DNA of 64,000 bases, taken from positions 18,538,001-18,602,000 of the forward strand of contig OX597824.1 in assembly GCA_951406725.2 (NCBI GenBank), given 5' to 3'. The notes beneath the pieces are model-generated. The model saw nothing but the letters and a program-made list of their open reading frames with translations, made no database searches and was not told the DNA's origin. Source of the stretch: Octopus vulgaris (taxonomy: Eukaryota). The position numbers and the translations under genes are program-made. Of this stretch, positions 3,787 through 62,274 are shown piece after piece; within the stretch, counting starts at the first letter, position 1; each line of letters starts with the position of its first letter.

Positions 3787-4090
3787 GTGGAGGTGCACTG
3801 GCCCAGTAGTTAGGGCAGCGGACTCGCGGTTGTAGAATCGTTGTTTCGATTCCCAGACCGGGCGTTGTGAGTGTTTATTGAGCGAAAATACCTATAGCTC
3901 CACGAGGCTCCGGCAGGGGATGATGGCAATCCCTGCTGTACTCTTTCGCCACAGCTTTTTCTCACTCTTTCTTCTGTTGGCCTGCTCGCTTAGCCAGCGG
4001 GGTGGCGTCATTTGAAGGCTAGAACAATACGAAACGCATTGTGACCAGCGATGTGTAGCAACATCTGATAGTCTGGCCGGTCACGGTGAT
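3787..4090 (+). mobile_element. SINE family C with tail type 3
   Basis: tRNA-like head GTGGAGG...TGGCCCAGT-GTTAGGGCAGCGGACTCGCGG...GTTTCGATTCCC. Tail ...GCATTGTGACCAGCGATGTGTAGCAACATCTGATAGTCTGG is shared with 38912-39167. Confidence 0.85.
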
Positions 4091-4674: not shown

Positions 4675-4990
<316 letters not shown>

Positions 4991-8871: not shown

Positions 8872-8879
8872 TATTGTCA

Positions 8880-9162
8880 TTGCCTTTGCACAGCTTCTAA
8901 CGCTGGAGATGTTACTACAGTGTCAGCTGTTCACTACCAGTGAACTAAGATAACACCTCTTATTTTTCGAGCACCTTCCGGAGTATTCGAGCGGGTCCCA
9001 TGCAGTGCTGTTTTCTGCAAGTGCTACACCCTTATTGCAGCCTCTATTTGTTCTACGTACTTCTCGAGATTTTTGTTCACTGTTCCCAGGGCTCCGACAA
9101 TTTTTGGTACTACTGCTACCTTTATCATCGACCACAACTGCTTAACTTCCCAAGCTAACCTG

Positions 9163-11306: not shown

Positions 11307-12096
11307 ATTCTATATAAAAAAAATAAATCCAAATTTCAACACCAAAGCAAGATATATGTTTATTTTTCCATACTCACTTCTATAACTTCTTTAATCTTTC
11401 ATTTAAATTTTTTAAAATTAAACCTACCTGTATTTAACTTAATCTAGAAGTAATTGTCTTCTCTATGATTGTCGACTAACAACGCTGCACCATAAGTATT
11501 ATCAAAATACAAAATTCATTGAAAAGCGACGTGATACTTATGTCTTCAAAAGAAAAGAAAGCATAAATAAATAGAGTTAACATACAGTAATGTAATGTAT
11601 TCTTCATTTAACAAGTAGGTTTAACGATAACAAGATTCGCCGGATTAACAAATATGCTTGCTCTGAGCAAATAATATTGAAAGCTAATACAAATGGTTCT
11701 CTGTAGTCAAATAGAAACTAACGTTAACTGTCTTAGTTTAATACCCATTGAAGTTTGAGAGATTGCTGTATAAATTATAATTAATTTAGAGAAGCCTCTT
11801 TTCTGTTTCGTTTTCAAGATGAAGAAAATTCATTTCGTTAATATTGCAATAGAACTTTAACTGTAAGAACTTCACAACAGCCATTTAATACAACGCTCTA
11901 CTTCAGATATATATGAACGTAAACTTGCAATAATCAGAGAGCGCAACACTTATCTGATTCTAAGCTGTGACCATTTTACAACATGATGCTTAAACCCGGG
12001 TTTTGACTGCCCTGTGCAGTAGCCAAACTGACCGCTCCCTTCCATATTAAGTAACATACGTCAAGCTATAGCAAACATACATACAAATATTTTATT

Positions 12097-12404
12097 TTTA
12101 TGCGCCCTTTTCAAGCATAACCAGGCTCATGGGCCCGGTTTCCTGGTTTCTATGGCGTATGTGTTCCCCCCAGCTGGACAGGGCGCCAGTCCATCGCAGC
12201 GCTACTCAAGAAACAGGAAGAGAGGGTGAGAGAAAGTTGGGGCGAAAGAGTACAACAGGGGTCGCCACCACCCACTGTCGGAGCCTCGTGAAGCTTTAGG
12301 TGTTTTCGCTCAATAAACACACACAACGCCCGGTCTATGAATCGAAACTGCGATCCTCCGACCGCGAGTCTGCTGCCCTAACCACTGGGCCATTGCACCT
12401 CCAC
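12097..12404 (-). mobile_element. SINE family C with tail type 2
   Basis: C head and body; tail ...GGGCCCATGAGCCTGG...GGGCGCATAAA as at 38246-38563. Confidence 0.85.
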
Positions 12405-12421
12405 ACGTATAACTCTCGTTT

Positions 12422-12800
12422 CACTCCGTCGGATACGACGACGAGGGTTCCGGTTGATCCGAATCAACGGAACAGCCTGCTCGTGAAATTAACGTGTAAG
12501 TGGATGAGCACTCCACAGACACGTGTACCCTTAACGTAGTTCTCGGGGATATTCAGCGTGACACAGAGAGTGACAAGGCCGGCCCTTTGAAATACAGGTA
12601 CAACAGAAACAGGAAGTAAGAGTGAGAGAAAGTTGTGGTGAAAGAGTACAGCATGGATCACCACCACCCACTGTCGGAGCCTTGTGGAGCTTTAGGTGTT
12701 TTCGCTCAATAAACACACACAACGCCCGGTCTGGGAATCGAAACCGCGATCCTCCGACCGCGAGTCTGCTGCCCTAACCACTGGGCCATTGCGCCTCCAC
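12422..12800 (-). mobile_element. SINE family C with tail type 1
   Basis: C head and body; tail ...GAGAACTACGTTAAGGGTACACG...CCGACGGAGTG. ACGTATAA repeated at 12405 and 12801. Confidence 0.9.
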
Positions 12801-13076
12801 ACGTATAATTATAAGCACGCATAAATAAAGATGCGAGCTAGTAGAATCTTCAACACGTCGAATAAAATGCTGAGCGGCATTTCTTTTGACTCTTTACGCC
12901 CTGAGTTCGAAACTCATCAAGTCCAACTTTGCCTTTCATCGGGAGCGTGGGATCGATAAAATACGTTAGCGGTCAAGTACTACGATCGAAATGACTAGCC
13001 TTGAATCCTACAACGAACCGGCGTCCTCCTCAGGGGAAGGTTGTCTTCTTGATCATTTACTTATGTATATATGTAT

Positions 13077-14565: not shown

Positions 14566-14569
<4 letters not shown>

Positions 14570-14781
14570 GTGACCTCGTGTGTACCGTTGGCGAATTTTT
14601 TCCCTCTGTCTTCCCTTCTCTGGATCTTTCCTTCTCCTATGTTTCCGACGAAGAGCTCCGCTCGAAACGTTAAACCCTCCTTCTTTCCTTCTTTCCTTCT
14701 TTCCTGAGCGTCCAATAATACTATATTTGTTCCACGTCCTCACGTTGTTGTGTTTTTTTGTGCTTTCTTGTTTGGATTAAC
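14566..14781 (+). mobile_element. Family P: short (TA)n-flanked element, probably a Penelope-like pLTR
   Basis: Second copy at 25817-26022, relatives at 52100-52290 and 40520-40600; contains a hammerhead-like motif. Confidence 0.7.
14641..14675 (+). ncRNA. Minimal type I hammerhead-like motif, U4C core variant
   Basis: GTTT-CCGACGA-A-GAGC(TCC)GCTC-GAAACGTT-AAAC: stem I GTTT/AAAC, stem II GAGC/GCTC, palindromic ACGT stem III. Confidence 0.55.
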
Positions 14782-14955: not shown

Positions 14956-15036
14956 TCCCGGGTTGATACGGGGTTAACCACAGTAAGTAAGGTACTCAAT
15001 ACATAGCAGAGTAAAATTAATTTATTATATAGAAGG

Positions 15037-15087
15037 AGCTTCTACAGGACTAGTACTGTTTCATTCAAGAGAAATCTTCAGGAAGCT
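15037..15087 (-). ncRNA. Type I hammerhead ribozyme
   Basis: Reverse complement of 17401-17451. Confidence 0.75.
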
Positions 15088-15204
15088 ATTTAACAAGAAT
15101 TGTATTAGCATTTATACATTTAGAGGAGTGGTGGTGGGGGACTTTTTGGGGGTAGGCATAGCGCAAAATATCATACTTGGGGGAGTGGTCAAGGTGTGTG
15201 TGTG

Positions 15205-17009: not shown

Positions 17010-17400
17010 AGATATATGTGTATGTGCGTATGTGTGTGTAGATACGTATACATGTGTGTATAGGTATAAGTGAGAATCTCCTTATTTACCTATAACTCTA
17101 TCCCCCCTTTTTTTATATATATATTTTATATATATATTTTATATATATATTTTTTTATATATTTTTTTTATATATATTTTTTATATTTTTTATATTTTTT
17201 ATATTTTTTATATTTTTTATTTTTATTCTTTTATTTTATCCTTTTATTTTTTTATTTATTTATTTATTTATTTATTTTTTTATTTTTTTATTACCTTGAC
17301 CACTCCCCCAAGTATGATATTTTGCGCTATGCCTACCCCCAAAAAGTCCCCCACCACCACTCCTCTAAATGTATAAATGCTAATACAATTCTTGTTAAAT

Positions 17401-17451
17401 AGCTTCCTGAAGATTTCTCTTGAATGAAACAGTACTAGTCCTGTAGAAGCT
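17401..17451 (+). ncRNA. Type I hammerhead ribozyme
   Basis: Stem I AGCTTC/GAAGCT, core CTGAAGA, stem II TTC/GAA (closing U.U mismatch), GAAA, stem III ACAG/CTGT, GUA cleavage triplet ending at 17445. Confidence 0.8.
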
Positions 17452-17462
17452 CCTTCTATATA

Positions 17463-18885: not shown

Positions 18886-19484
18886 CGCACCCCCCCCCAC
18901 TTCTGCCGCAATATCTTAATCATTTCGCATGCTTCCTTGCTTTCCTTCCGTCTTCACTTTTCTTTTATGAGTGACATTTTTTGCTTTAAATTGCGGTCAA
19001 CTGGAGTGTTTAGCGCAGAAAAATAAGCTGCAGCCTCATCAGTATAAAAGGTAACGAAAGAGTGAAAGGAAATACGAAATAAAAGAACAGAACAAAAGAA
19101 GACATCTTTTTCTTGTACTATTTTTGTTTTAATATAAATTTAGTTCATGTTTTTTTTTTTTTTTATTGGTGAGGAAAATAAATGATGTGAAGTAGGAGGA
19201 GGGAGCAAGAAACTTTAAATAAAGTGAAATTTGTAAAATTCATAAAATAGTAATAATGATGTTTTATTTCGAACATTGCATTCAGTACCATTCATGCATA
19301 CAAATACAAAAATCTTAAAATCTAGAGCTTTACAAAAAACGTGTAGGGTGGGAGATACAAGTTGTATAAAGCGACGCGACGGCTCAAAGACGTTATACAA
19401 TGTATGAAGGGACAAGTTTATGAATTTAAGTAAAAACATACAAATATTATGAAAGTGTGCAATAAAAAAAACTGCAATAATAAG

Positions 19485-20465
19485 GGCAGTGAGCTGACAG
19501 AAACGTTAGCACACCGAAAGAAATGCGTAGCCGTATATCGTCTGCCGTTACGTTCTGAGTTCAAATTCTGCCGAGGTCGACTTCGCCTTTCATCCTTTCG
19601 GGGTCGATTAAATAAGTACCTGTTACGCACTGGGGTCGATATAATCGACTTAATCCGTTTGTCTGTCCTTGTTTGTCCCGTCTATGTTTAGCCCCTTGTG
19701 GGCAATAAAAAAAAAAAAAGAAACATTAGCACGTCGGGTGAAATGCGTAGCCGTATATCATCTGCCGCTACGTTCTGAGTTCAAATTCCACCGTGGTCGA
19801 CTTTGCGTTTCATCCTTTCGGGGTCGATAAATTAAATACCAGTTACGCACTGGGGTCGATGTAATCGACTTAATCCATTTGTCTGTCCTTTTTTGTCCTC
19901 TCTGTGTTTAGCCCCTTGTGGGTAGTAAAGAAATAGGTATTTCCTCTTCCGCTACGTTCTGAGTTCAAATTCCGCCGAGGTTGACTTTGCTTTTCATCCT
20001 TTCGGGGTCGATTAAATAAGTACCAGTTACGCACTGGGATCGATATAATCGACTTAATCCGTTTGTCTGTCCTTGTTTGTCCTCTCTGTATTTAGTCCCT
20101 TGTGGGTAGTAAAGAAATAGGTATTTCGTCTGCCGCTACGTTCTGAGTTCCAATTCCGCCGAGGTCGACTTTGCCTTTCATCCTTTCGGGGTCGATTAAA
20201 TAAGTACCAGTTACGCACTGGAGTCGATACAATCGACTTAATCCCTTTGTCCGTGTCTGTCTCCTCTGTGTTTAGCCCTTTGTGAGTAGTAAAGAAATAG
20301 GTATTTCGTCCGTCGCTACGTTCTGAGTTTAAATTCCGCCGAGGTCGACTTTGTCTTTCATCCTTTCGAGGGTCGATAAATTAAGTACCAGTTACGCACT
20401 AAGGTCAATGTAATCGACTAGTCCCTTCTCCAAAAATTTCGGGCCTTATGGCTAGAGTAGAAAAG
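19485..20465 (+). mobile_element. SINE family B tandem array: four B2-tailed units and a final B1-tailed unit
   Basis: Junctions near 19720 and at 19935/6, 20119/20 and 20299/300; CTGCAATAAT repeated at 19472 and 20474. Confidence 0.9.
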
Positions 20466-21559
20466 AAGAAAAGCTGCAATAATTAAAACGATATATTTAA
20501 AGTGGAAGAGTCCATTTGGGTTGATTAGGTCAAATTATTGCCTTTATTATATGCATGCTTTTCACACATCCGCTAAAGTGCCCCTGTTTCATGTAATGCT
20601 GAGTTCGGAATCTTCAATGAAGAGATCTTTGCTTAGATAGGGCGAGTAATGGCCCAAGTCTTTGAGATGAAACGTATGAGAAATATACTCGTTGTATTTT
20701 ACTAATAGTTTATCTTCCTTATGTTGTAGAACAAACCAGTAAATCGTTTTGATATAATAACGCTCATATCGTAAATGTCTTACGTTAGGCTTTTGTTGGC
20801 CTCGCGAAACCATCTTGCAATTCTTTGCTGGAACATTCTAATTATTTATCCGTCGTACCGGAGCCAAGACATTTAAATGCAATGTTGCAGCTTCACAGTG
20901 ATAGACTTTCAGGTAATGTTACCTCAGAAATTCTTCGGAGGAACCTCTTTTTGTGATCGAACTCCTTTCATTATTAACAAACAATTAATGACCACAAATG
21001 AATATCAAAACTCCTCAGAAAGATATACACGTGTGAAAAATAATTGTTGCATTAAAGATATATAAATAAATAAATATAAATATGTATAAAAATATATGTA
21101 AATATGTATAAATATAAGTACATCTTTCTGGGGAGTTTTGATATTGATTTCCTGATATTAATAATAAAATATTATTAAAAAGTATATATGTATAAAATCA
21201 CTTGTGTTAAATATATAAATACTTTAATATTATTAATAATGTGATACAGTTGAGCACACAATATAAATTCAGTATATAATATTCTCACTGAATATAGTTA
21301 ACTAAAGGTTTATGACAATAAATGAATATATAAAATTCTATTCGTAAATGTATCCCTACCGCTACAGTTGATATGTAATCAAGGCATCTCAGAGTAAATT
21401 TTAGTCACTTCCGAACGAGTCAGAAATTAATAAGAATTTTTAAAAAGCAGTTGTTTCTATCATTATCACTGGGCTATAAATTTTGAAGACGAGGGTTACT
21501 GAATCAAATTGGGACCATTTATTTAACCACGGCAAAAACTGAAAAACAGAGTGTCGGTT

Positions 21560-21959: not shown

Positions 21960-22289
21960 TATGTTTCTTTATTAGCCACACAGGGCTGCACACAGACGGG
22001 ACAAATTACAAAGGAGAGCTTTTCTTTTTGGGGAGAAAAAAAAGTGGGATAGGTTTTCGATCAAAAAAGGAGTCGTGAAAAGGAAAGAAAAAAACGATCA
22101 GTAGGGATCGTGTATCACAGAAATATCATGATGTAAAGTATAAAAGGGGAAGCAGATAAGGTTTGTCCGTGGAAAGAAAAGCCTACGGAAAAGAGCACGG
22201 TAACCTCGGTCAATAATGTCACATGTTAACACATTTTTTTTATGAAGTAAATAACTCTCTGTTTTAAATTTTTCCGGGTTCATAGGATT
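21960..22289 (-). mobile_element. Tx1/L1-type LINE 3' UTR, copy a
   Basis: Homologous to 22313-22663, including the ATCCTATGA stop context; bounded by (GACA)n and (GATA)n. Confidence 0.75.
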
Positions 22290-22312: not shown

Positions 22313-22840
22313 TTTCTATATTGGCCACGCAGGGCTGAATACAGAAGGGACAAAATACAAAGTAGAGCTTTTCTTTTTGGGAAGAGAAGGAAAAAAAAAC
22401 AAAAAGAAAAGGAGGTCGAATTCCGATCAAAAGGGATCGTGAAAAGAAACAAAAAAAAGTGGGGGCGATCAATAGGGATCGCGTATCACAGAAATGCCAA
22501 TGTAGAAAGGGAAAACAGATTAAGTTTGTATGTGGATAGAAAAGCCTACGGAAAAGACCACGGTAACCTTGGGCAATAGTGTCATGCAAAAAGAAAACAC
22601 ATTACAGTAAGTGGCTCCCTTTTTTCTTTTCGTTTTTTTTCTTTTCTTTTAGTTCATAGGATTATGCGCAAGCTGGCTCCGACATTCATTCATACCATCC
22701 TTGCTACATTCACCCATCTTTTTTGAAGTATTCACTAGACTAAACTGCCCTCTCTATTCTCACCTTCCTCTTCAAGTGATACTTGAAGAAGTTGATGACA
22801 GATTGACCAGAGAGAAGAGTGTTTGTCTCTAGACCTTTCG
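22313..22840 (-). mobile_element. Tx1/L1-type LINE ORF2 C-terminus plus 3' UTR, copy b
   Basis: Minus strand reads KGLETNTLLSGQSVINFFKYHLKRKVRIERAV*SSEYFKK(fs)RWVNVARMV*MNVGASLRIIL*; homologous to 42960-43200. Confidence 0.75.
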
Positions 22841-25816: not shown

Positions 25817-26019
25817 AAATGTGACCTCGTGTGTACCGTTGGCGATTTTTTTCCTCTGTCTTCCCTTCTCTGGATCTTTCCTTCTCCTATGTTTCCGACG
25901 AAGAGCTCCGCTCGAAACGTTAAACCCTCTGTCTTTCCTTCCTTCCTGAACGTCCAATAATACTATATTTGTTCCACATCCTCGCGTTGTTGTGTTTTTT
26001 TATGCTTTCTTGTTTGGAT

Positions 26020-26022
<3 letters not shown>
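25817..26022 (+). mobile_element. Family P element, second copy, hammerhead-like motif at 25891-25925
   Basis: Near-identical to 14566-14781; (TA)n flanks. Confidence 0.75.
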
Positions 26023-26059
<37 letters not shown>

Positions 26060-31211: not shown

Positions 31212-31361
31212 GAGACCGGGCGTTGTGTGTGTTTATTGAGCGAAAAAAACACCTAAAAGCTCCACGAGGCTCCGGCAGGAGGTGGTGATCCCTGCTGTAC
31301 TCTTTCACCACTCTAAAGGCGGTGCTCCAGCATGGCCGCAGTCAAATGACTGGAACAAGTA
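31212..31361 (+). mobile_element. SINE C internal fragment joined to a SINE A tail
   Basis: C body to 31310, then CTAAAGGCGGTGCTCCAGCATGGCCGCAGTCAAATGACTG. Confidence 0.7.
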
Positions 31362-31492
31362 CAAAAAAAAAAAATAAAAAGAAAAATATACATAGATACA
31401 TGCATATATATACATACGTGTATTTATCCATATATATGTATATATGTATATATATATGCATACATGTTTGTGTATATATATATACATGTATG

Positions 31493-36918: not shown

Positions 36919-37491
36919 GTGGAGGCACATGGCTACATGGTTAGAGCAGCGGACTCGCAGTTGAGGGATCGAAGGTTCGAATCTCAGACCAGGCGATGTG
37001 TGTTTTTATGAAAGGCAGCGAGCTGGCAGAAACGTTAGCATACCGGGCGAAATACTTAGCGGTATTTCGTCTGTCGTTACGCTCTGAGTTCAAATTCCGC
37101 CGAGGTCCACTTTGCTTTTCATCCTTTCGGGTTCGGTTAAATAAGTACCAGTTCAAATTCTGCCGAGGTCGACATTGCCTTTCATCCTTTCCAGGTCGAT
37201 TAAATAAGTACCAGTTACGCACTGAGGTCGATATAATCGACTTAATCCGTTTGTCTGTCCTTGTTTGTCCTCTCTCTGTTTAGCCCTTTGTGGGTAGTAA
37301 AGAAATAGGTATTTCGTCTGTCGTTACGTTCTGAGTTCAAATTCCGCCGAGGTCGACTTTGCCTTTCATCTTTTCGGGGTCGATAAATAAAGTACCAGTT
37401 ACGCACTGGGGTCGATGCAATTGACTTAATCCCTTTGTCTGTCCTTGTTTGTCCCCTCTATGTTTAGCCCCTTGTGGGTAGTAAAGAAATA
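36919..37491 (+). mobile_element. Chimera: SINE C head (36919-37010) joined to a B2 multimer (37014-37491)
   Basis: Contains the recurrent AAAGAAATA|GGTATTTCG junction; TTAGAC(AC)nAT on both flanks. Confidence 0.8.
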
Positions 37492-37907
37492 TATTAGACA
37501 CACACACACATCTGCACACACACAAACAGACACACATACACGCACATACACACACACACACGCACACACACACACACACATACACACATATATATTCTTT
37601 TATTCTTTTACTTGTTTCAGTCATTTGACTACAGCCATGCTGGAGCACCGCGTTTAATCGATCAAACCAACCCCAGGACTTATTCTACAGTACATAAGTT
37701 TTGTTTTGTTGTGGAATTTGATTTGTTACTTCCGGTGCTAGTTTGGTGTCTTGAAATTACTGAGAGCTTGCTCAATATCAGTTGTCTTATTTTACATGGC
37801 GATGCTTGATGTTTCCAATGTCCTGTGATTGGTTTCAGGAGCTGTCTTAGTGTGGGACAATGATTGCGAAGAATATGTGTGGTATAGTTACCCTTTAGTA
37901 TATTTCC

Positions 37908-38227
37908 GTGAGGGCGCGTGGCTTAGTGGTTAGGGCATTCGGCTCATGATCGTAAGGTTGTAAGTTCGATTCCCGGCGACGCGTTGTGTCCTTGAGCAAG
38001 ACCCTTTATTTCACGTTGCTCCAGTCCACTCAGCTGGCAAAAATGAGTTGTACTTGTATTTCAAAGGGTCAGCCTTGTCACTCTCTGTGTCACGCTGATT
38101 ATCCCCGAGAACTACGTTAAGGGTACACGTGTCTGTGGAATGCTCAGCCATTTGCACGTTAATTTCACGAGCAAGCTGTTCCGTTGATCGTATCAGCTGG
38201 GACCCTCGTCGTCGTAACCGGCGGAGT
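37908..38227 (+). mobile_element. SINE family E (CORE-like body) with tail type 1 and 15-bp TSD
   Basis: A box TGGCTTAGTGG, B box AGTTCGATTCC, CORE-like GTGTCCTTGAGCAAGAC...CCAGTCCACTCAGCTG; TSD CTTTAGTATATTTCC at 37893 and 38228. Confidence 0.9.
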
Positions 38228-38245
38228 CTTTAGTATATTTCCATA

Positions 38246-38563
38246 GTGGAGGCGCAATGGCCCAGTGTTTAGGGCAGCGGACTCGCGGTCGGAGAATCGC
38301 GGTTTCGATTCTGAGACCGGGCGTTGTGTGTGTTTATTGACGAAATCACCTAAAAGCTCCACGAGGCTCCGGCAGGAGGTAGTAGCGACCCCTGTGGTAC
38401 TCTTTCGCCGCAACATTCTCTCACTCTTTCTTCCTGTTTCTTGAGTAACGCTGCGATGATGGACTAGCATCCCGTCCAGCTGGGGAGGGGGAACACATAC
38501 GCCATAGAAACCGGGAAACTGGGCCCATGAGCCTGGCTAGGCTTGAAAAGGGCGCATAAAAAA
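38246..38563 (+). mobile_element. SINE family C with tail type 2
   Basis: Matches 12097-12404. Confidence 0.9.
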
Positions 38564-38575
38564 ATACTTCCATTA

Positions 38576-38893
38576 GTGAAGGCGTGTAGTTTAGTGGTTA
38601 TGGCATTCGGCTCATGATCGTAAGGTCGTGAGTTCAATCTCTAGTGACGCATTGTGTCCTTGACCACGACACTTTATTTCACCTTGCTCCTGTCCACTCA
38701 CCTGGCAAAGAGGAGTGGTACCCGTACTTCAAAGGGCCAGTCTTATTACGCTGTATATCGTTGAATCTTTCAGAGTACTACATTAAGCGTACACGTGTCT
38801 GTGGAGTACTCAGCCACTTACACGGCTACTTCACGAGCAAGCTGTTCCGTTGATCGCAACAGCTGGGTCCCTCGTCATCGTAACCGACGGAGT
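38576..38893 (+). mobile_element. SINE family E with tail type 1, older
   Basis: Colinear with 37908-38227. Confidence 0.85.
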
Positions 38894-38911
38894 GATCCAT
38901 ATTTCCATTGT

Positions 38912-39167
38912 GTGACAGCGCATGGCCTAGTGGCTAATGTGTTGAACATTCACGATCGCTACGCCGTAGGTTCGATTCCTTGACCGAGTGTCGCATTGTG
39001 TTTTTTGGTTAAAATCCTTCATTTTACGTTGCGCCGGTGCAACCACGCGACGGATTGGCCTCCTCACCTAGCCAGCGGGATGGTATCATTCGAAAGCTAA
39101 AACGATGCAACACGCATTGTGACCAGCGGTGAATAACAACACCTGATAGTCTGGTCGATCACGTGAT
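38912..39167 (+). mobile_element. SINE family E with tail type 3, diverged
   Basis: E-like head; tail matches 3985-4090. Confidence 0.75.
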
Positions 39168-39221
39168 GCTTCCATTACAGTTTTGGCAGGTGTATGAAGT
39201 GGAGGAGTAGGGTTAGACTGT

Positions 39222-39445
39222 AGCTGGCAGAAACGTTAGCGCGCCGGACGAAATGCTTAGCGGTATTTCGTCTGCCGTTACGTTCTGAGTTCAAATTCCA
39301 CCGAGGTCAACTTTGCCTTTCATCCTTTCGGGGTCGATAAATTAAGTACCAGTTACGCACTGGAGTTGATGTAATCGACTTAATACCTATGTCTGTCCTT
39401 GTTTGTCCCCTCTGTGTTTAGCCCCTTGTGGGTAATAAAGAAATA
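39222..39445 (+). mobile_element. SINE family B2 monomer
   Basis: Colinear with 14101-14331. Confidence 0.9.
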
Positions 39446-40818: not shown

Positions 40819-41062
40819 GTGGAGGCGCAATGGCCCAGTGGTTAGGGCAGCGGACTCGCGGTCATAGGATCGCGGTTTCGATTCCCAGACCGAGCGTTGT
40901 GAGTGTTTATTGAGCGAAAATACCTAAAAGCTCCACGCAGCCCAGGCAGGGGATGGTGGGGATCCCTGCTGTACTCTTTCACCACAACTTTCTCTCACTC
41001 TTACTTCCAGTTTCTGTTGTACCTGTATTTCAAAGGGCCGGCCTTGTCACTCTCTGTGCTTC
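40819..41062 (+). mobile_element. SINE family C, tail type 1 with internal deletion
   Basis: Colinear with 43745-44125 up to CACTCTCTGTG. Confidence 0.85.
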
Positions 41063-41406
41063 CATCCATTACCCCAATCTGTTGTTAAGCGTGACGAGCT
41101 AACCTATACAATTTTTGTGGTACTGTATCTGGTACAAATTTCAAATGGAGGCTTTTTTTAAACGCATCACCATAATCTTCAGTTGCATTTCTTCACTGAG
41201 TTTTTCTTTGTTTCACCTGTTGTGGCTTCTGCAAAATTTCCTTTTATTTTCTCTATGATCTGAGGAATCGTTTATTTTATGTTTGTTCGTCTGTATTGTA
41301 TCACTTTCTTTTATTTCTGGAATCTTACGCGTTTTGTACGAGGTGGGTTCTGTAGTAATGCTTTCATTGGTTTCTTGGAATTATTCTATTACAGTTTCTG
41401 CAATAC

Positions 41407-43744: not shown

Positions 43745-44125
43745 GTGGAGCTGCAATGGCCCAGTGGTTAGGGCAGCGGACTCGCGGTCATAGGATCGCG
43801 GTTTCGATTCCCAGACCGGGCGTTGTGAGTGTTTATTGAGCGAAAACACCTAAAGCTCCACGAGGCTCCGGCAGGGGATGGTGGTGATCCCTGCTGTACT
43901 CTTTCACCACAACTTTCTCTCTTACTTCCTGTTTCTGTTGTACCTGTATCTCAAAGGGCCGGCCTTGTCACTCTCTGTGTCATGGTGAATATCCCCGAGA
44001 ACTACGTTAAGGGTGCACGTGTCTGTGGAGTGCTCAGCCATTTACACGTTAATTTCACGAGCAGGCTGTTCCGTTGATTCGGATCAACCGGAACCCTCGT
44101 CGTCGTAACCGACGGAGTGCTTCCA
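43745..44125 (+). mobile_element. SINE family C with tail type 1, full length
   Basis: Matches 12422-12800. Confidence 0.9.
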
Positions 44126-50595: not shown

Positions 50596-50671
50596 GGAAA
50601 AAAGCAACAAGAATGGATTAAAATCTCGGTAAATTTACCGAGATTTTAATCCATTCTTGTTGCTTTTTTCC
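50596..50671. repeat. Perfect 76-bp palindrome with no spacer
   Basis: 38-bp arms centred at 50633/50634. Confidence 0.95.
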
Positions 50672-56100: not shown

Positions 56101-56391
56101 GTGGAGGCACATGGCCTAGTGGACTCACGGTCGAGGGATCGCGGGTTCGAATCTCAGACCGGGCGATGTGTGTGTTTATGAGCGAAACACCTAAGCTCCA
56201 CGCGGCTCCGGCAGAAGGTAATGGCGAACTTTGGCTGACTCTTTCGCCACAAATTTCTCTCACTCTTTCCTCCTGCATCTTGTAGCTCACCTGCGACGGA
56301 CCGGCGTCCCGTCCAGGTGGGGAACCTATACGCCAAGGAAACCGGGAAACCGGCCCTTATGTGCCAAGCGTGGCTCGAGAAGGAACAAACA
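56101..56391 (+). mobile_element. SINE family C with tail type 4, 13-bp TSD, inside an old B copy
   Basis: ACATCAAAAATCA at 56088 and 56392. Confidence 0.9.
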
Positions 56392-56552
56392 ACATCAAAA
56401 ATCAGAATGAATTACAAAAGGCATTTTTTCTGACGCTCTAACGATCCTACCAGCTCAACATCTTTCGTGTGGATATAATAATCTTTTCTGCTATAGGCAC
56501 AAATCCTGAAATTGTGTGGGATGGGACTTGTCGATTATAGCAATCCCAGTAT

Positions 56553-56954: not shown

Positions 56955-57407
56955 TCCCTTATACTGTAGGTACAAGCCCTGAAATGTGGGGGAAGGGATA
57001 TTTATTTCTTTACTACCCACAAGGGGCTAAACACAGAGAGGATAAACAAGGACAGACAAACGGATTAAGTCGATTATATCGACCCCAGTGCGTAACTGGT
57101 ACTTATTTAATCGACACCAAAAGGATGAAAGGCAAAGTCGTCCTTAGCGGAATTTGAATTCAGAACACGACGACGGACGAAATACCTATTTCTTTACTAC
57201 CCACAAGGGGCTAAAAACAGAGAGGACAAACAAAGGGTTTAGTCGATTACATCGACCCCAGTGCGTAGCTGGTACTTATTTAATCGACCCCAAAAGGATG
57301 AAAGGCAAAGTCGACCTCGGCGGAATTTGAACTCAGAACTTAGCGGCAGACGAAATACCGCTAAGCATTTCGCCCGACGTGCTAACGATACTGCCAGTTC
57401 ACCGCCT
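56955..57407 (-). mobile_element. B2 dimer (one head, two units) followed by a B1 tail
   Basis: Recurrent junction at about 57186; B1 tail at 56955-57000. Confidence 0.85.
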
Positions 57408-57519
57408 TATATACTGATGTAGTAATATTTGCTAATTTAATGGGTTTCTAATTTAGATACAGGGGTAGTAATGTTTAGAACCCGAATCAGTCCATACCAG
57501 TGATCTCAGCTTTTTATTA

Positions 57520-61212: not shown

Positions 61213-61861
61213 TATTTCTTTACTGCCCACAATTTGGAACGTAACGTCAGACGAAATACCTATTTCTTTACTACCCACAAGGGGCTAAACACACAGAGGA
61301 CAAACAAGGACTGACAAACGGATTAAGTCGATTGTATCGACTCCAGTGCGTAACTGGTACTTAATTTCTCGACGCCGAAAGGATGAAAGGCAAAGTCGAC
61401 CTCGGCGAAATTTGAACTCAGAACGTAACGACAGACGAAATACCTATTTCTTTATTACCCACAAGGGGCTAAACACAGAGGGGACAAACAAGGACAGACA
61501 AACGGATTAAGTCGATTGTATCGACTCCAGTGCGTAACTGGTACTTAATTTCTCGACGCCGAAAGGATGAAAGGCAAAGTCGACCTCGGCGAAATTTGAA
61601 CTCAGAACGTAACGACAGACGAAATACCTATTTCTTTATTACCCACAAGGGGCTAAACACACAGAGGGGACAAACAAGGACAGACAAACGGATTAAGTCG
61701 ATTGTATCGACTCCAGTGCGTAACTGGTACTTAATTTCTCGACGCCGAAAGGATGAAAGGCAAAGTCGACCTCGGCGAAATTTGAACTCAGAACGCAACG
61801 ACAGACGAAATACCGCTAAGCATTTCGCCCGGCGCGCTAACATTTCTACCAGCTCGCCGCC
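61213..61861 (-). mobile_element. B2 multimer: one head, three ~184-bp units and a deleted stub, inside a 14-bp TSD
   Basis: Junctions at 61260/1, 61444/5 and 61628/9; TSD ACTATTGCTCCATA at 61201 and 61865. Confidence 0.93.
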
Positions 61862-62274
61862 TTTACTATTGCTCCATAACCAGCTAGAGACCATCTCTGC
61901 TGCTTCTCCCATCCTGTGCACAGCTACATTTTGCTTTTGTTCTCTTATCTAATGGCATTCTCCATCCTAAATGGACAGGGAATATAGTATGTGTTCAGCA
62001 ATGTAGTGAAAATTAGTTATTTACTTACAATTACGGTTGATTTTATTCGAATAGATAAGCACCAGATGTTTATGGCTGGTTGCCGACAGATTTTTCTGCT
62101 CTGAAAAGGATTTTACCCTATATATGCTGTTCTGTCAGAATTTAAGCGTTGAAAAATATATCCTTCTACTTGTTTGAAATAAAAAAATATTTTAATGTGA
62201 AATTGTCCAGCAACGACGGGTTACTAGGTTAGTGCGTGTGTGTGTGTATGTATTTGTTTGTTTGTTTTTGTTTT

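Follow-up and report, generated by a model that had tools for sequence, protein, structure and literature searches.

Repeated insertion of SINEs at a single locus has been described in mammals. In cats, CanSINEs target existing CanSINE loci and form tandem arrays, with four to six independent insertions with overlapping TSDs seen at single loci, according to the available part of the report (PMC4084570). As described there, CanSINEs resemble the octopus locus considered here in being tRNA-derived, in inserting repeatedly at one locus with overlapping TSDs, in forming tandem arrays, and in using an AT-rich target. They differ in being L1-driven and A-tailed, and in the same part of the report their multiple insertions lie mostly in different species, one of them reversed, whereas the octopus stack holds four copies with three tail types in one sequence. 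Tandem Alus are described as common in the accessible portion of another report, with new Alus biased towards other SINEs (PMC3415434). The Alu/L1 system has a longer preferred site (TTAAAA) and uses A tails as a second target, whereas approximately TAT is all that is common to the insertions here. Younger Alus reportedly insert in the same orientation beside an older Alu by using its endonuclease site again, a finding attributed to El-Sawy and Deininger in 2005. The original prediction of a SINE stack at this locus missed the mammalian precedent of tandem Alus and CanSINEs.

Other elements insert beside tRNA genes. Ty3 does so at the start site, NLTR-A at 2-6 bp upstream of the gene, and TRE5 at 44-54 bp upstream and in opposite orientation, according to the available parts of two reports (PMC5911963, PMC5006619). 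As described in those parts, Ty3 and NLTR-A share with the octopus locus insertion just upstream of a unit carrying A and B boxes, at similar spacing. The parallel that the original prediction drew with Ty3 and TRE5 holds in spacing for Ty3 (and NLTR-A) but fails for TRE5, whose geometry is unlike that of the stack. In the same parts, Ty3, NLTR-A, and TRE5 use true tRNA genes via TFIIIB/C and most of their copies are so placed, whereas most copies here are solos.

Octopus tRNA-derived SINEs are said to have been described by Ohshima and Okada in 1994, and the repeats of the present window (the whole 64-kb stretch of octopus DNA that was analyzed) presumably resemble the OK, OR1, and OR2 elements. 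Like OR-type SINEs of octopus, they are modular and tRNA-headed; OR2 has been reported as a CORE-SINE in a source available in part. SINEs make up 11.6% of one octopus genome, and the available text of that report contains nothing on stacks (PMC13282606). Nothing on stacking appears in the available parts of PMC11699766, PMC12840619, PMC3531059, PMC5786205, and bioRxiv 2024.05.03.592410. A literature search covering papers outside subscription found no report of stacked cephalopod SINEs, and the window motifs had no match in the papers' text or in the searchable files of two supplements. The stack described below is real and well formed, and is a new example of an already known behavior.

The four-unit stack and its junctions

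The window is rich in repeats and microsatellites; its 67 long frames, read by eye, are mostly microsatellite and include no plausible gene. Copies or fragments of SINEs with C or E heads number 17 in the window, and in the contig sets 86,000-142,000 contigs per run match the repeats. Head types and tail types are freely combined among the window copies, as befits modular SINEs. The C/E heads carry an A box at +12/13 and a B box with 0-3 mismatches to a consensus, at tRNA-like spacing. A clear TSD of 7-15 nt flanks 12 of the 14 copies examined, those at 40819 and 12404 being the two without. Judged by copy number, boxed head, and TSDs, the C/E repeats are tRNA-derived SINEs. The match to the Rfam tRNA model is weak (37917-37975, in the unit 1 head; 20.9 bits, E 0.62), the Rfam search of the window otherwise gave only microsatellite-driven matches, and ARAGORN found no tRNA genes in the window. 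No LINE carrying tails 1-3 was seen in the window, tail hairpins are not significant (z of -1.75, -1.86, and +0.27), and pattern scans for further copies returned 0 in metagenome contigs and 0 in genome contigs. Two other SINE families of the window, J (19 heads) and K (16 heads), together outnumber C/E.

Four of the C/E SINEs lie head-to-tail on the + strand at 37908-39169, and every module has relatives elsewhere in the window. The components of the stack are as follows.

37893..37907, + strand: left TSD of unit 1, the leftmost copy of the host site, matching 38228-38242 at 15 of 15 positions
37908..38227, + strand: unit 1, E head (37908-38046, with A and B boxes) and tail 1 (38047-38227), with relatives in the window
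38228..38245, + strand: junction 1, where the right TSD of unit 1 (38228-38242) overlaps the left TSD of unit 2 (38235-38245)
38246..38563, + strand: unit 2, C head (38246-38441), tail 2 (38442-38557), and an A run, 88% alike to the copy at 12404-12095
38564..38575, + strand: junction 2, a single copy of the word that is at once the right TSD of unit 2 and the left TSD of unit 3
38576..38898, + strand: unit 3, E head and tail 1, older and with degraded boxes, 82% alike to unit 1
38899..38910, + strand: junction 3, which unit 3 has as its right TSD and unit 4 as its left TSD, spanned by contigs of organisms B and E
38911..39169, + strand: unit 4, E-like head with intact A and B boxes, and tail 3, the tail 82% alike to 3977-4090
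39166..39177, + strand: last copy of the word, either a decayed TSD of 11-12 nt or a 7-nt TSD overlapping the element's own end (2 mismatches in 11; best automatic TSD 7 nt)

The module relatives and the junction words bear out the predicted stack of four SINEs in one orientation. The predicted module order, E(tail 1), C(tail 2), E(tail 1), E(tail 3), is likewise recovered, with unit 4 only E-like; the label is loose in this case because the head differs by 33-36% from the four other E heads. Units 1 and 3 are of the same type, yet differ by 16-19%.

All five target words named in the original prediction are found in place: CTTTAGTATATTTCC at 37893 and again at 38228, ATACTTCCATT at 38564, ATATTTCCATT at 38899, and TTCCATT at 39170. 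The two copies of CTTTAGTATATTTCC are exact and constitute a 15-nt duplication of unit 1, and TTCCATT sits within ATGCTTCCATTA (39166). A single word of 11-12 nt, present in four copies (38235, 38564, 38899, and 39166) with 0-2 mismatches in 11, frames units 2-4. The left boundary is identical for units 2 and 3, and that of unit 1 lies 7 nt further left. The units had been said to be separated only by versions of the target word; the word does stand at every junction, but the junctions also carry the elements' own 3′ ends (an A run, GATCC). Solo copies of tail 1 end in GCTTCC(AT) and unit 4 ends in TGCTTCCATT. Given the solo tail-1 ends, the last word (39166) may be partly the element's own end, and the TSD of unit 4 is either a decayed one of 11-12 nt or one of 7 nt overlapping that end.

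Since the duplication of each unit overlaps those of its neighbors, all four units entered one host site of about 20 nt. These are adjacent copies with overlapping TSDs from independent sources, comprising three tails, two or three heads, and divergences of 3-29%. The pattern fits four separate insertions and not a multimer or a duplication, though the nesting of duplications is by itself compatible with any insertion order.

Order was approached through divergence, measured as difference from the majority of the other window copies, of which there are 2-8 per module, subfamily differences included. Head and tail differ from other copies by 7.8% and 7.2% in unit 1, 8.8% and 3.2% in unit 2, 17.5% and 18.0% in unit 3, and 28.5% and 20.4% in unit 4. 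Dating of the copies by divergence, run within the window, therefore gives about 7-8%, 3-9%, 18%, and 20-29% from left to right. The predicted rightward rise in divergence holds from unit 2 onward, but does not distinguish unit 1 from unit 2, given the few copies per module. Unit 4 is likely the oldest and the founder, with unit 3 next, and the perfect TSD of unit 1 suggests that it is the youngest; we infer this order of insertion from divergence against few copies. At the junctions resolved by divergence, the 5′ member is the younger in three of three (p=0.125). One listed contig each from organism B (246 nt) and organism E (271 nt) spans the junction between units 3 and 4, with 9 and 10 differences, respectively, and 1 gap in each. 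No empty-site joint was present among the joints listed from the contig sets (15 of 1960). In organism C, two contigs have small gaps at 38228 and 38232; they may or may not represent this locus and were left out of account. The comparison covered 4 of 24 listed runs, and a raw-read set, of which 6 in 12.9 million records aligned, contributed nothing.

Probable re-use of a single target site

The stack probably arose by four separate insertions in which the enzyme of the partner LINE re-cut one favored AT-rich target. Unit 4 would have inserted first, followed by serial target-primed insertion in which the machinery of the partner LINE re-nicked one AT-rich site. Each insertion would leave one target copy joined to the original left flank, with the nick context there intact, and the next element would enter 5′ of the earlier one, oriented alike. 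The same nick would have served units 2 and 3, that of unit 1 lying 7 nt further left. Because the 5′ copy of the TSD would keep the original nick context, stacks formed in this way would grow 5′-ward and in one orientation. Of the two routes put forward in the original prediction, the one in which the enzyme re-cuts its own duplicated target agrees with the nested duplications, the common left boundary of units 2 and 3, and the weak TAT motif.

The nested duplications, three different tails, divergence gradient, and weak TAT edge are observed. The enzyme, the order, and the reason for the strength of the site are what we infer; the likeness of the word to the end of tail 1 may contribute to that strength, and so may pairing with the older head. 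Against re-cutting count the commonness of TAT, the other near-matches of the word outside the stack, and the nick of unit 1, which is shifted by 7 nt and is without TAT. A head copied from a neighbor in a second stack (described below) is unexplained by re-cutting alone, and therefore counts against re-cutting as the sole cause.

Target preference of the C/E family is loose. Among eight solo full-length C/E copies, one lacks a TSD and each of the other seven is flanked by an unrelated TSD of its own, 11-14 nt long, the solo copy at 43745 being counted by the exact core of its TSD. When TSDs of unrelated loci are compared for a shared motif, the words themselves prove unrelated, but a weak TAT at the left edge is common to six of the seven solo TSDs, and it is found also in units 2 and 3. 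The TAT edge is absent at the nick of unit 1 and ambiguous at unit 4. The word of the stack was rejected as a family-wide target, as the solo TSDs are unrelated to it and the upstream flanks have no fixed word. In three contig sets (650, 463, and 436 contigs), the sequence preceding the C heads is T/TA-rich with an agreement of 0.39-0.41 and no fixed word, and occurrences of the stack word with up to two mismatches number 54 in the window against 59 expected, 49 of them outside the stack.

Uniform use of the 3311 non-microsatellite TAT sites by 17 insertions would give a mean of 0.08 re-uses, and simulations with TAT sites produced four re-uses in 0 of 60,000 runs. The probability of a chain of four per window is about 2e-6 if the 3311 TAT sites are available and 2e-4 if only the 645 TATAT sites are. 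These odds overstate the case because the stack had been selected in the original prediction; without it there is one re-use among 13 insertions, with a probability of 0.02-0.22. TAT is too common to account for four hits, and extra attraction beyond the motif is therefore needed. The site is much more attractive than a short motif explains.

A second stack and rival explanations

A second stack lies on the - strand of the window (12800-12095), and comparison of TSD sequences between the two stacks, as proposed in the original prediction, shows that it uses a different word of 8 nt.

12422..12808, - strand: upstream member, with the 8-nt word (12801-12808), a C head matching the neighbor over its first ~135 nt, then sequence of C-tail-1 type, and tail 1
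12095..12421, - strand: junction (9 extra nt and the identical 8-nt word), then the older C head and tail 2

Here a C copy with tail 1 stands directly upstream of a C copy with tail 2, and the 8-nt word precedes both. In its own part, the upstream copy is the less diverged of the two (tail 1.7%, against 6.1%). The two copies have three variants in common (positions 34, 127, and 131) that are absent from the other 5-7 C copies covering these positions, and they differ at 6 of the first 138 nt. Beyond ~135 nt, the upstream copy is of C-tail-1 type, with 1 difference in 54 from the copy at 43745 as opposed to 9 in 58 from the neighbor. To judge by these variants, the chimeric head would have formed either by copying of the older head during insertion or by later conversion. 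In organism B, a further tail-2-to-C-head joint at another locus, with 10 letters between, is found in one of the 12 rows shown of 600.

The second stack points to a third route, missed in the original prediction, in which pairing with an older head would drive stacking. The nick would fall just upstream of an older C/E copy, and the new cDNA would anneal to or switch onto the older head, making completion of the insertion more likely. Same orientation, placement on the 5′ side, and related heads only are expected from such pairing. It agrees with the shared 5′ variants of the second stack followed by the switch to C-tail-1 type, and with the use of C/E heads only; the chimeras that L1 and Alu reportedly form with resident copies would also count in its favor. 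In the four-unit stack, however, the heads keep their own type from about the fourth base, copying beyond ~3 nt is absent, and the TSD of unit 1 stops 3 nt before the head of unit 2. The second stack is moreover a single case, and its shared variants could stem from later gene conversion between neighbors. Pairing as the driver of stacking is a tentative and rather unlikely explanation.

Still more doubtful is tethering, in which TFIIIB/TFIIIC, or simply open DNA, would draw the partner LINE to the start of Pol III-bound heads in the manner of Ty3. Measured upstream from the next head, the nicks do lie at ~8-18 nt and the 5′ joints at 0-3 nt, close to where transcription is expected to start and comparable to the positions of Ty3 and NLTR-A given above, and the A and B boxes of unit 4 are perfect. 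De novo Alus are likewise biased towards other SINEs in the available part of PMC3415434. Nearness to the next head, however, follows from re-use alone, because the old TSD abuts the head. Within the window, a C/E 3′ end is found 25 nt or less upstream of 4 of 16 C/E heads but of 0 of 35 J/K heads (Fisher p=0.007), a comparison in which Pol III use by J/K is itself presumed; without the selected stack, the counts become 1 of 12 and 0 of 35, which is not significant (p=0.26). B-box mismatches in the four target heads today are 2, 3, 0, and 2, so that the targets include unit 3 (three mismatches) and the copy at 12404 (two). Four of the 17 C/E copies end directly upstream of a head, far short of the majority that fixed-distance targeting would place there, and 8 of the 14 whose TSDs were examined are solos with no head nearby. 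The suggestion that the LINE is drawn to Pol III-occupied heads found no positive support in the window, with no J/K head used and unit 3 used despite its B box, and the window data weakly oppose general Pol III tethering. Equally doubtful is a combined route in which the older head steers the next insertion, the LINE being guided to Pol III start sites as an animal counterpart of Ty3 and the cDNA pairing with the older head, such that the stack grows 5′-ward unit by unit.

Tandem duplication, unequal crossover between alleles, or a read-through multimer is highly improbable. Units 1 and 3 are of the same type, and the K family makes multimers within one TSD pair in this very window. Against this, units 1 and 3 differ by the 16-19% noted above with a different family between them, the three tails are unrelated, and the local word stands at every junction, where a multimer made elsewhere would not carry it. 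A single multimer is excluded by the differing heads, tails, and ages. A chance pile-up picked from many windows is scarcely credible: the stack was selected, and the one junction left without it among 13 insertions has the probability of 0.02-0.22 already given, but a chain of four falls at ~2e-6 (TAT) to 2e-4 (TATAT) per window, and another tail-2-to-C-head joint is among the rows listed for organism B.

Neighboring repeats and implications

Several other arrangements of repeats were observed in the window. K SINEs at 19474-20490, 37012-37491, 57003-57408, and 61256-61863 contain head-to-tail repeats of their 3′ part of ~185 nt. The multimer at 19474-20490 was likely made in one insertion because the whole of it lies within one TSD pair, and for the same reason the idea that K-K and J-J neighbors reflect the same stacking process was rejected for 19474-20490. 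Both stacks lie within ~45 nt of a K head, a closeness that is not rare in the window, and the K element at 39222 looks younger than unit 4. A possible chimeric insertion occupies 36919-37512, where a K element is joined to a C-like head of 92 nt and one duplicated word running into CA repeats lies on either side of the pair. A C head is joined to the last ~50 nt of a J tail at nearly the same point in 31213-31365 (+) and 62475-62271 (-). The copy at 40819-41069 consists of C and tail 1, with most of tail 1 missing between two GTG words and the terminal CTTCCATCCAT kept; its TSD was not found. Two C/tail-2 variants, 56101-56392 (+) and 56870-56553 (-), are oppositely oriented and separated by 160 nt, and each lies, apparently, within an old K-like element. 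A stretch of 163-174 nt occurs in two inverted copies (15020-15193 and 17294-17456), and 50596-50671 is a near-perfect palindrome of 76 nt. Other low-copy repeats outside C, E, J, and K pair 22095-22221 with 22466-22584, 14568-14781 with 25818-26023, and 4886-4962 with 8879-8965.

The four-unit stack offers a clean case of a SINE insertion hotspot in an invertebrate. It serves as a warning that a SINE found at a given site need not reflect one event only, and its nested TSDs lend themselves to the relative dating of subfamilies. For head-guided targeting, the chimeric head found in the second stack offers the best lead. If such targeting were true genome-wide, an animal non-LTR element would be following a new kind of targeting rule, and modular head/tail SINE families would have a way of being shuffled.
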